Source: a virus
Taxonomy: Duplodnaviria; Heunggongvirae; Uroviricota; Caudoviricetes
DNA: 49,396 nt
IMG/VR virus record: IMGVR_UViG_2582580752_000019
Reading direction: 5' to 3' (one strand)
The position numbers are program-made. This document shows positions 1-3,000 of this stretch, one piece after another. Numbering within the stretch: the first letter of the stretch is position 1; every line of letters starts with the position of its first letter.

Positions 1-3000
1 ATGTTGAAGATAATACCCGGTGCAACTGGATACTTTAATAAAACACTCAATTCAAATCAATTCGATAATGAAGATGCAATCAAAGATAAATTAGATAATA
101 GAGGTACAATCAAAGGTAAAGTAAATAGTATATATGGTAAATCTATTGATTATGCAGCGCTGCGTCATCGGGATATAATTATTGCAAAAATAGATTTGTT
201 TATTCAAAGAATCACTCATAATTTATGGACTGCACGTGAAAAAAATGTGACGTTAATTAAGCAAATAAATGATCTCAAAATGTGGGTCAATAAGTATATT
301 GACGATTGCACTGATGAGGAATTAGACGATCGTGACTTTATTACTTCAGTTGTTGATCGGGCTATTTTTCATTTCGCGATTAATAGTATATGTAATCCTG
401 AGGATACTAAAGATGCGACTCCCATAGACCGATATACTTTTGATGTAGAAACCAAGAATGGCCTTCCCTCCACGGTTCAGCTATTTTATAAGGAATCTAA
501 GGATAATGAACCTTTAGCGAATATACATTTTCAAGCAATAGGTTCTGGTTTTTTAACGTTTGTTAACGCCTGCCAGGAACATGATGACAACAGCTTAAAA
601 TTATTTGCTTCGCTGTTAATTTCACTTTCATATTCTAGTGCCTACGCAGATTTATCAGAAACAGTGTATATTAATGAAAATAATGAGAGCTACCTGAAAG
701 CTCAGTTTGAAAAATTATCTCAACGTGATATGAAGAAGTACCTGGGAGAGATGAAGCGTCTGGCAGATGGGGGAGAAATGAATTTTGATGGCTATCTGGA
801 TAAGATGTCACATCTGGTGAATGAAAGAACGCTCGATCCTGATATTTTAAGCAAAATGCGAGATGCTGCACCACAATTAATTAGCTTCGCGAAGTCGTTT
901 GACCCAACCTCAAAGGAAGAGATTAAAATACTTACAGACACTTCTAAATTAATTTATGATTTGTTCGGGGTTAAATCGGAGAAATAATATGTGAAGTTCT
1001 TCGATAGTATGGAAGGCATTATATAAAAGGACCCAATATTTATTGGGTTCTTTTTTCTCTATCAATGCTATTAGCAGGGAGAGATATCACCGGAGTTTAA
1101 TGTGTGATTTTTTATTTATCGTCGAACTTAGATTGTTTATCATTGGCCTTAACAAAGCTAACGGCTAATAAGATTATTTCCATCACTTCGTGAGAACTTC
1201 ATGCCTTGAGAGGATCTCAATTTTCTTTTGCAATGAGACAGGCGCTTCCTGTTGTTATGGTATAGTACCCCGCTATTGAGCCTCCTGAACAGTGATGCTG
1301 AATAACATAACTCAATGATATATCGATAAAATAATCTCTACATTTGAAAATGCACGGTAATTCTGAAATGCAAAAAATCAACCAAACCAGCGCAATGCCT
1401 GAAAAAACTGACGTTCACTGGAGTGGTCGGTTTAGCGTTGCACCAATGCTCGATAGGATGTACCGTTTTTGAAAAACAAGTAGTTATACACTTTGTGGGA
1501 GCCTATTGGGAACCCGGTGTTTTCATTTCAAGGTGTAATCCATGCCGGGCATCAGAATGAGATATAATGAGATTTTTAGTGTTCCGCTTGAGAGTCTATG
1601 ATGCTTACCCTAGACGAGATAGGTCAATCTGTACGTAACAATATCCAGTTGATTATTGATCATGTCGGCTTACCTCTTGCTGTTGGTCCGCTCAGTGATG
1701 ATGATTACAAGATTCTGTGTGGTGGCTATGGTGAGCTTGAATGGGACTATGCGTTAAGCACCTATGGCAACTCCAGAGAAAAGTATGAGTTCTGCATAAA
1801 ACTTGTTCAGCAAGGTCGGGTTCAGGGAATACCATCAGGAGCAGCAATTTGTGTTTATGGGGTTGAAGAAAACATCTTTCGTATCCATATGATCGAAAGG
1901 TTTTCTAGAGAAGATGAATCTCACCCATTGAAAGGGCGCATGGTTTTACTCACTCTTATGAGTGCTTTTATATTTTGTAAAGCTGTTGAATGTAAAGTTG
2001 TCCACATTGTAGAGCCAGTACCAGAACTGGTGCAGTATTACGAGTCTTTTGGTTTCCGCATGGAACAGTGCGGTTATGTGATGTCTGCAGTCATTGATGA
2101 GCTGCAGGATATCTTTCTTAAATTTGCTCAGTAGGTATAGACGAGAAGGGTCTACAAATTGTAGGATACCCGTCCAGATTACCTTAAAGGTACATCTATG
2201 GCAGTCGTTTTGTGCTTAAACTACTAAGAAACGATGTCACCAATCGACATGATCGATTGGCATAAGTTAGCGAAACAAGCTAGCTTTAAAGAGAGGGTTA
2301 GAGACGCCTTTACTGTCTCGGGAGTTTTCTATGAAAGATCAAAAAGCAACCAAGCCACAGGTTAAGTTCGACACAATGAAAGCATTCGCAGGTATGGGTG
2401 CTGCTGTTGAAGTTCTGATGAAGGCTGCTCCTAATGCGTTCACTCACGCTACTGTCTCTGGTAAAGAGCAGCAGGGTAAGCTTCGTCGTCGCAAAGCAGC
2501 ATGATCATAGCTGGTGCTTTTTGAAAACCCGCCTTTAGGCGGGTTTTTTCTTTAGTGATGTTCTTTGCCCTTCTGTTTGCTTGTTCTGACCTGTTCCCAC
2601 TCGATACGTCCTTCTTCTCGTCTTTTGTCTATGTATTCCGCAAGATCCTGAATATTGATGCAACGTTTTGCTTTTTGTGATGTGCCGATGCGATATGTTG
2701 GAACGGGCAACTTACAAGCGTTTGCTTTTGCTTCTGCCGTGGCTGGACTCATGCCAAAGTACTTTTGGCTAACTGCTGAGAGTTCAATGTTAGGGGTATT
2801 GAATTCAGCCATCAGTAAAAACAAGGTGTTCATAATTTTCTCCATCAAAACCGGCTGCACCCGGGAAAATCATAATTCTGTGCTGGTGGCAGGAATTAAT
2901 TTCTGCCAGATAGCGGAAACATATTTTGCCTGATGACGGGCATCAGCCAGGGCGTTGTGCCGTTCGCCATCGAAAGGCATGTCCATTTTGGGGTCGAATC

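Follow-up and report, generated by a model that had tools for sequence, protein, structure and literature searches.

A mobile two-gene prophage cassette pairs a divergent GNAT-fold protein with a small basic protein and may form a toxin-antitoxin-like module

We analyzed a 49,396-nucleotide (nt) stretch of viral DNA (Caudoviricetes; IMG/VR record IMGVR_UViG_2582580752_000019), hereafter called the window at its full length, and focused on a cassette near its left end in which a gene for a GNAT-fold protein is followed on the plus strand by a gene for a basic protein of 57 amino acids (aa). The window comprises E. coli chromosome with a lambdoid prophage that is 98% identical to phage mEp460 over the cassette region. 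Both products are annotated everywhere as hypothetical proteins (in RefSeq and mEp460, WP_000956557.1 / gp23 for the larger open reading frame (ORF) and WP_000654815.1 / gp24 for the smaller), despite the occurrence of the pair in E. coli and several other genera. We find that the two genes form a self-contained, horizontally mobile moron that is optional in many unrelated temperate phages of Gammaproteobacteria, and we tentatively read it as a toxin-antitoxin-like module. As one conserved mobile unit with a GNAT-fold enzyme, the pair is a testable candidate for a new prophage conflict module of the toxin-antitoxin or defense type.

The larger gene lies at 1601 to 2134 on the plus strand. A reading made from the DNA alone before this analysis (the sequence-only reading) had placed a 178-aa ORF at 1598 to 2134; the ORF itself stands, but translation probably begins at its second ATG (1601) and yields a 177-aa product, because homologs all begin with MLTL or MLSL and GAGAG or GAGG lies 7 to 9 nt upstream of that ATG. 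The same reading had guessed from a weak motif that the protein is GNAT-like, which structure bears out and sequence models do not. The predicted structure follows the mixed alpha/beta order of the GNAT superfamily (beta1-alpha1-alpha2-beta2-4-alpha3-beta5-alpha4-beta6), its closest matches are protein N-terminal acetyltransferases with defined peptides as substrates, and TacT3, AtaT and KacT are among its best structural neighbors. By sequence, neither the protein nor ten distant members of its family matched Pfam or NCBIfam at E ≤ 1, a PHROGs search matched both cassette proteins to families of unknown function only, and a structure search of BFVD recovered remote generic GNATs only. Profile matches to PDB entries (gp41 constructs and designed armadillo repeats) were rejected as spurious. 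The protein contains motif B as YYxSFGF (YYxxFGF in the family) and has an unusually long cofactor loop of 13 residues. Among homologs down to 18-40% identity, W49 and Y148, the latter in motif B, are invariant, and E100 in strand 4 and the H109-P-L-x-G113 stretch are largely kept. On the modeled structure, only the fold makes the protein a member of the GNAT superfamily; its sequence is very divergent.

The smaller gene (2331 to 2504, plus strand; phrog_2741) encodes a basic protein whose central helix is flanked by disordered tails and whose C terminus ends in RRRKAA. It has its own Shine-Dalgarno (SD) sequence, as the earlier reading had noted: GGGAG at 2320-2324, 6 nt upstream of the ATG and kept as GGAG or GAGG across the alignment. 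The substitution pattern marks this ORF as a real protein-coding gene under purifying selection, with pairwise Nei-Gojobori ratios of nonsynonymous to synonymous change (dN/dS) of 0.07-0.32, mostly synonymous changes, and a frame and length retained to ~30% protein identity in a family of 54 to 59 aa. Its frequency of optimal codons (Fop) is 0.74, compared to 0.36-0.53 in eleven other genes of the window, and is higher than that of the neighboring GNAT gene in 14 of 14 cassettes. An AlphaFold2 model (predicted local distance difference test score 62) contains one helix at approximately residues 15-35 and basic tails of low confidence. Homologs nearly all end in Ala-Ala after basic residues, one Photorhabdus homolog ending in -AVA. 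Degrons recognized by ClpX include ...LAA of ssrA and ...RRKKAI of MuA, and by analogy the Ala-Ala tail suggests a proteolysis tag. Searches of Pfam, NCBIfam and PADLOC returned nothing for the small protein or for an overlapping 43-aa ORF, and PDB profile matches to DARPins were discarded as spurious.

The two genes are found together well beyond the window. At 15 of 15 loci with a GNAT homolog of at least 40% identity, the gene is followed after 77-250 nt by a homolog of the small ORF. The earlier proposal of a 57-aa ORF regulated as a unit of its own is thus not supported; the pairing is established only down to this ~40% GNAT identity. Besides the window, paired loci occur in Escherichia and Pseudescherichia (L006, L008 and L009), Enterobacter mori and Franconibacter, and in Hafnia, two metagenomic phages, Shewanella, Photorhabdus, Brenneria and two Edwardsiella lineages. 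Further paired loci are a second, divergent E. coli cassette, a Shewanella-like metagenomic phage and phage Eeyore, and more pairs can be deduced from shared contigs and neighboring locus tags. The intergenic gap is 196 nt in the window and only 77-93 nt at several other loci; this close spacing suggests co-transcription, and the GNAT and small genes are probably read as one unit. Among remote family members, one scan came back empty and two alignments were too divergent for a pattern search, and at a remote locus (L108) and on a 3-kb Morganella plasmid the GNAT-like genes had no partner recognizable by profile.

Several of these loci carry features of their own. The second E. coli pair (L110-L112, 3365/3434-4177) consists of a protein of 162-185 aa and one of 58 aa, the latter ~30% identical to the small protein; its neighbors are ProQ- and PerC-like genes, and type III secretion genes of the SPI-1 type follow within a few kilobases on the downstream side. 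In phage Eeyore (PP925821, L115) the small gene is present at 4292-4456 and unannotated, several ORFs of 30-40 aa being annotated instead. The Morganella morganii plasmid (NZ_CP139443.1, L116) has a 35%-identical GNAT-like gene that runs across the numbering origin and, upstream of it, a 54-aa ORF (2623 to 2787) that ends in GRRRVEEAVS and bears a faint likeness to the small partner, so that a reversed gene order of the pair is possible there. The L108 contig from IMG/VR (1-1415) encodes two tandem, very divergent GNAT-like paralogs followed by a 51-aa basic ORF of unrelated appearance.

The cassette moves among phages as a unit. It was found between attL and the excisionase gene (the window and Shewanella loci); in the classical late moron slot (Q-holin), which separates the Q antiterminator from the lysis genes; directly after a cI-like repressor gene (Brenneria); in the tail/baseplate module of a myovirus (Photorhabdus); and in the gpA-portal interval of a P2-like prophage (Edwardsiella). 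This last interval is a P2 defense hotspot according to Rousset et al. (PMC9122126), and in the related hotspots of P4 satellites six of eight tested cargo items of unknown function were defensive (PMC13586616). Cassette homology starts ~80-90 nt upstream of the GNAT start and stops just past the terminator that follows the small gene. Alignment of the upstream regions revealed a -10-like motif, GATATAAT (1561 to 1568, plus strand), as a candidate cassette promoter; cassettes from unrelated contexts keep it as GGTAYAAT ~30-35 nt ahead of the GNAT start, although a consensus promoter scan, for want of a good -35, did not call it. The cassette has a G+C content of 43%, compared to 52% for the prophage. 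A terminator at the end of homology, a deviant base composition and patchy presence among syntenic phages are all traits of a moron. We observed the cassette in temperate phages and prophages only, and among 50,697 phage records in mEp460 and Eeyore alone.

Across 5426 complete E. coli genomes, the GNAT gene is present in 356 (6.6%), including O157:H7 and O111, the small ORF with its terminator in 560, and a dusA-type integrase in ~726-939. Of the GNAT-bearing genomes 354 carry the whole region, so that the enzyme gene almost never occurs without the small ORF, while ~200 genomes have the small ORF without the enzyme gene. This is the asymmetry expected of a toxin and its neutralizer, in which the small gene can stand alone and the enzyme gene almost never does. 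We examined four loci without the GNAT gene, in two phages and two chromosomes, and in all of them a Panacea-domain antitoxin/toxin pair replaces the GNAT gene and the leader between the two genes, with the junction 13 nt before the ATG of the small ORF; phages Lys8385Vzw and SKA5 have this pair in place of the GNAT gene and are otherwise syntenic. The exchanged cargo of sister dusA prophages (L003 2986-4187; L105 2483-3684; L106 2480-4854) consists of the Panacea antitoxin and its partner, then the same 57-aa ORF. The partner has 139 aa (annotated as 128 aa) and its family is unassigned, and in one strain an extra CoiA-like gene is inserted after the small ORF. The view of the sequence-only reading that this is variable cargo rather than a core gene therefore holds: among syntenic dusA prophages the cassette varies, with the GNAT gene swapped for the Panacea pair, and the GNAT gene occurs in far fewer genomes than the integrase.

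The attL-excisionase gap of dusA-integrating lambdoid phages thus behaves as a cargo-exchange hotspot. Its cargo includes the GNAT pair, PanA/PanT, the CoiA-like gene and TacAT, and like the hotspots of P2 and P4 it could be mined for further systems. Immediately upstream of the cassette, Hafnia phages (L091 and L092, 3051-4109) have a gene with a RelA_SpoT domain (toxSAS-like), and a Shewanella-like phage (L113, 1702-2498) has a canonical toxin-antitoxin pair of TacA1 and Acetyltransf_1 proteins.

Between the two genes of the window lies a structured leader (2135 to 2330, plus strand) with four conserved hairpins at approximately 2179-2193, 2240-2260, 2264-2286 and 2301-2319. The 196-nt leader has a minimum free energy (MFE) of -60.3 kcal/mol (z = -4.15 against shuffled sequences), and RNAalifold recovered all four hairpins from eight enterobacterial cassettes. 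The spacers of distant cassettes are shorter or unstructured, with z near 0; strong folding is confined to the enterobacterial lineage and is therefore a lineage-specific addition rather than a defining part of the module.

One of the four hairpins is the 20-bp palindrome that the earlier reading had taken as the mark of an independent unit; the repeat exists at 2240-2260 and does not set such a unit apart. Its arms, CCAATCGA (2240-2247) and TCGATTGG (2253-2260), are perfect and flank a 5-nt spacer. By itself the repeat is a weak signal, as a comparable one turns up in 9% of shuffled versions of the region. The arms are kept around a variable loop in eight cassettes from at least five genera, and the palindrome is absent from distant cassettes. 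Pairs in the leader are mostly invariant, and where only one partner has changed, a C facing G has mainly become U. Such changes keep a G-U pair in the plus-strand RNA and leave an A-C mismatch on the other strand, which, with little covariation to draw on, mildly favors an RNA hairpin over a protein operator. A consensus scan called no promoter in the leader. A long-range pairing of the conserved UUGUAGGA with the start-codon region, seen in the MFE fold of the window, was rejected since, on inspection by eye, it cannot form in L006, and since it is absent from the consensus structure. At positions 2234-2262 of the window, an ATG that is invariant in five non-E. coli cassettes (L006-L010) opens a nine-codon mini-ORF spanning exactly the palindrome, with the pattern M-[LT]-[PL]-I-x-x-x-[DN]-W-stop; the E. 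coli sequence lacks this stop, and its frame continues for 43 aa. No SD is visible, and the mini-ORF could be a coincidence or a leader peptide.

The cassette closes with an intrinsic terminator (2523-2548, plus strand), an 11-bp G+C-rich stem followed by TTTTTTCTTT; ahead of it, the stop codon of the small ORF lies within another hairpin (2493-2520). The terminator had been described as strong and bidirectional; action in both directions is plausible, as the minus strand folds equally well, but would be weaker on that strand, where only four T follow the stem. Rfam gave only sub-threshold, terminator-like matches at E ≤ 1, and ARAGORN called neither a tRNA nor a tmRNA. We considered whether the cassette region corresponds to sRNA-17, an ArcA-modulated small RNA (sRNA) published for an mEp460-like prophage (PMC7719688), and rejected this, as the primer maps to 8072-8092 instead. 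The prophage therefore carries this sRNA locus of E. coli K1 RS218 (8072-8092, plus strand) well away from the cassette, between two minus-strand ORFs, one at 7565 to 8158 and a repressor-like one at 8594 to 9268.

The prophage is integrated in dusA, at its 5' end. Comparison of the two attachment sites, attL and attR, by alignment places the displaced host 5' fragment of dusA at 1353 to ~1454 (plus strand; annotated in RefSeq as a truncated tRNA-dihydrouridine synthase), where it ends at the attL junction and reads towards the cassette. At attR, dusA is restored (47983 to 49020) by fusion of a phage-borne 5' end, ~80% identical to that of the host, to the remainder of the gene, and the integrase (46797 to 47894, minus strand) adjoins it. 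Replacement of the dusA 5' end is the behavior reported for the dusA-specific integrase family (PMC4482086). On its other side the cassette faces the convergent early-left operon, whose last gene, outside the cassette, encodes a PrtN-family excisionase (2552 to 2860, minus strand; Pfam PF11112, E = 4e-23) and which also encodes an Rv2179c-like 3'-5' exonuclease. The dusA alignment and these two identifications confirm the position between attL and the early-left operon originally given for the cassette.

The displaced dusA promoter and 5' fragment (1353-1600) point into the cassette with no terminator called between, so that the host dusA promoter could also drive the GNAT gene in a lysogen; in the free phage, the phage-borne copy of the dusA 5' end takes the same position upstream of the cassette. 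An IS3-family element (IS600-like transposase in two frames, ~5224-6380, minus strand) lies within the early-left operon and splits an HD-hydrolase/yfdR-like gene, according to the annotation of an identical O145 chromosome.

What might such a cassette do? Our preferred interpretation, plausible but held with less than even confidence, is a toxin-antitoxin-like prophage conflict module in which a GNAT effector is restrained by an abundant, labile small protein. We are led to it by the GNAT fold, the obligate pairing, the coding nature and codon bias of the small ORF, the mobility of the cassette, the hotspots it occupies, its toxin-antitoxin and defense neighbors, and the orphan asymmetry. The larger protein would be an acetyl-CoA-dependent acetyltransferase of the alpha-amine class, given its structural neighbors among N-terminal acetyltransferases and the tRNA-acetylating toxin TacT3. 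Its target would lie in the translation or protein machinery, and the free enzyme would be harmful or growth-arresting. The small protein would be made in excess, as its optimal codons and strong SD suggest, and would probably be short-lived, with a disordered, basic C-terminal tail whose final Ala-Ala resembles ClpX degrons. It would bind and restrain the enzyme. If host expression were shut off in a lysogen, or a superinfecting phage supplied a trigger, the small protein would be depleted and the enzyme freed, and the outcome would be an exclusion or abortive-infection function, or addiction, from a toxin-first module.

It is possible, at a lower level of confidence, that the pair represents an undescribed toxin-first toxin-antitoxin or abortive-infection system, with a GNAT lineage outside the curated families, a degron-tailed neutralizer, tuning by four hairpins in enterobacteria, and plug-in spread across the defense hotspots of lambdoid, P2-like and myovirus prophages, including an O157:H7 prophage. 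Literature searches by protein accession and PHROG identifier, and on GNATs in connection with defense or toxin-antitoxin systems, returned nothing on this family.

A number of observations weigh against a toxin and its antitoxin. PADLOC-DB 2.0 contains no match at E ≤ 1 for either protein. The acetyl-CoA loop reads H109-P-L-K-G113-R-M (HPLKGRM), keeping only the central Gly of the Q/RxxGxG/A motif. The small protein has no recognizable DNA-binding or TacA-like domain and no Pfam match, and the two genes are 77-196 nt apart rather than overlapping. Antitoxins are usually less conserved than their toxins, whereas within Enterobacteriaceae the small protein has a dN of 0.05-0.11 compared to 0.18-0.27 for the enzyme; this higher conservation could reflect a contact of its own with a conserved host target. 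The orphan small ORFs beside the Panacea pair could be leftovers of recent recombination. Finally, the Fop values depend on Ikemura's set of optimal codons, and the degron is read by analogy with known ClpX substrates rather than from a tool.

The chief alternative, which we regard as rather doubtful, is a non-toxic enzyme with its substrate or cofactor. Here the GNAT would acetylate the small protein, at its N terminus or a lysine, or use it as a specificity or adaptor subunit acting on a host protein, with a regulatory or lysogenic-conversion effect. Strict co-occurrence and a moron architecture with its own terminator fit this explanation as well, as do nearest structures that belong to peptide-acting N-terminal acetyltransferases and a small protein that is conserved and codon-optimized, as an abundant effector touching a conserved host component would be. 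However, the small proteins have no invariant lysine (K31 is replaced by Q or R, and K50 by R or E), the small ORF stands without the enzyme in ~200 E. coli genomes and so, if a substrate, is not enzyme-dependent, and the neighborhoods hold mostly toxin-antitoxin and defense cargo.

Counter-defense is improbable. An acetyltransferase that inactivates an immune protein of the host or of a rival element, with the small protein as an accessory inhibitor, would suit a phage-borne GNAT fold, and the location downstream of Q in several phages would permit late lytic expression. Yet the restriction to temperate phages and prophages speaks against it, the cassette is interchangeable with toxin-antitoxin cargo, and in dusA phages it runs opposite to the early operon and has a terminator of its own, which is not the location of early anti-defense genes.

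More improbable still are two unrelated hitch-hiking genes, the 57-aa ORF being an independent unit, as first proposed, here with an operator and promoter of its own. In favor of this are two elements ahead of the small ORF, the palindrome and CATAAG, a weak -10-like sequence; other upstream cargo is also found with the small ORF, and synonymous divergence (dS) of 1.76 in one gene and 0.05 in the other between the window and L065 shows a recombination breakpoint between them. Against this, the pair is kept from E. coli to Shewanella and in at least five phage slots, with gaps as short as 77-93 nt in some lineages, no promoter is called in the leader and distant cassettes lack the palindrome. 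The idea that the 57-aa ORF is untranslated and that 2135-2550 encodes, up to the strong terminator, a regulatory RNA (a small RNA or one derived from a 3' end), for which one could cite the strongly structured leader (z = -4.15), the hairpin and terminator at the 3' end and the unusually low dS of the small ORF within Enterobacteriaceae, is very improbable in view of the dN/dS of 0.07-0.32, a frame and length kept at 30% protein identity, the conserved SD, Rfam matches that stay sub-threshold and terminator-like, a published prophage sRNA-17 that maps elsewhere (8072), and codon optimization as the reason for the low dS.

If the cassette is a toxin-antitoxin-like module, its nearest known counterparts are the GNAT/DUF1778 systems (TacAT, AtaRT, KacAT and ItaRT). 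Like these, it combines a GNAT-fold protein of ~175 aa with a small protein on mobile elements, has TacT3, AtaT and KacT as structural neighbors and displays the orphan asymmetry of toxin and neutralizer; in one phage a canonical TacA1-GNAT pair adjoins it. Unlike them, the cassette GNAT has no Pfam Acetyltransf match and aligns to a canonical toxin with an hhalign probability of 3.6% over only 15 motif-B columns, and its partner, which has no ribbon-helix-helix (RHH)/DUF1778 domain, scores 0.2% against TacA1. In one account of TacAT-type loci (PMC9177977), the RHH/DUF1778 antitoxin gene lies upstream of the toxin gene, overlapping or abutting it. In the cassette the partner is downstream, the genes are 77-196 nt apart, and upstream there is only attL and the promoter region. 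By all sequence- and architecture-based tests of the TacAT/DUF1778 family the cassette is not a member, although this is the family that it is likeliest to resemble in how it works.

The protein N-alpha-acetyltransferases NatD/Naa40, Ard1/Naa10, Naa20 and RimI share 9-13% identity with the cassette GNAT, which differs from them in its degenerate acetyl-CoA loop motif and in being phage-borne with an obligate small partner gene. AcrVA5 is a prophage-encoded GNAT anti-CRISPR that inactivates an immune protein in phage-host conflict; it is a single gene, and no homology between it and the cassette GNAT was looked for or seen. PanA/PanT (Panacea antitoxin) cassettes use exactly the same slot between attL and xis in sister phages, where the 57-aa ORF and its terminator again come next; the proteins are unrelated.

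Neither protein nor the pair was found in the literature searched or in PADLOC, and as a genetic object the pair is a typical moron. The lambdoid morons bor, lom and stx are optional transcription units between conserved modules, each with its own terminator, as in the Juhala/Hendrix definition. The cassette is likewise optional, with its own terminator, a lower G+C content than the phage and a patchy distribution among syntenic relatives, and it also uses the Q-holin slot of stx. What sets it apart from these morons is that its two genes travel intact among at least five slots and among siphovirus-, P2- and myovirus-type prophages.

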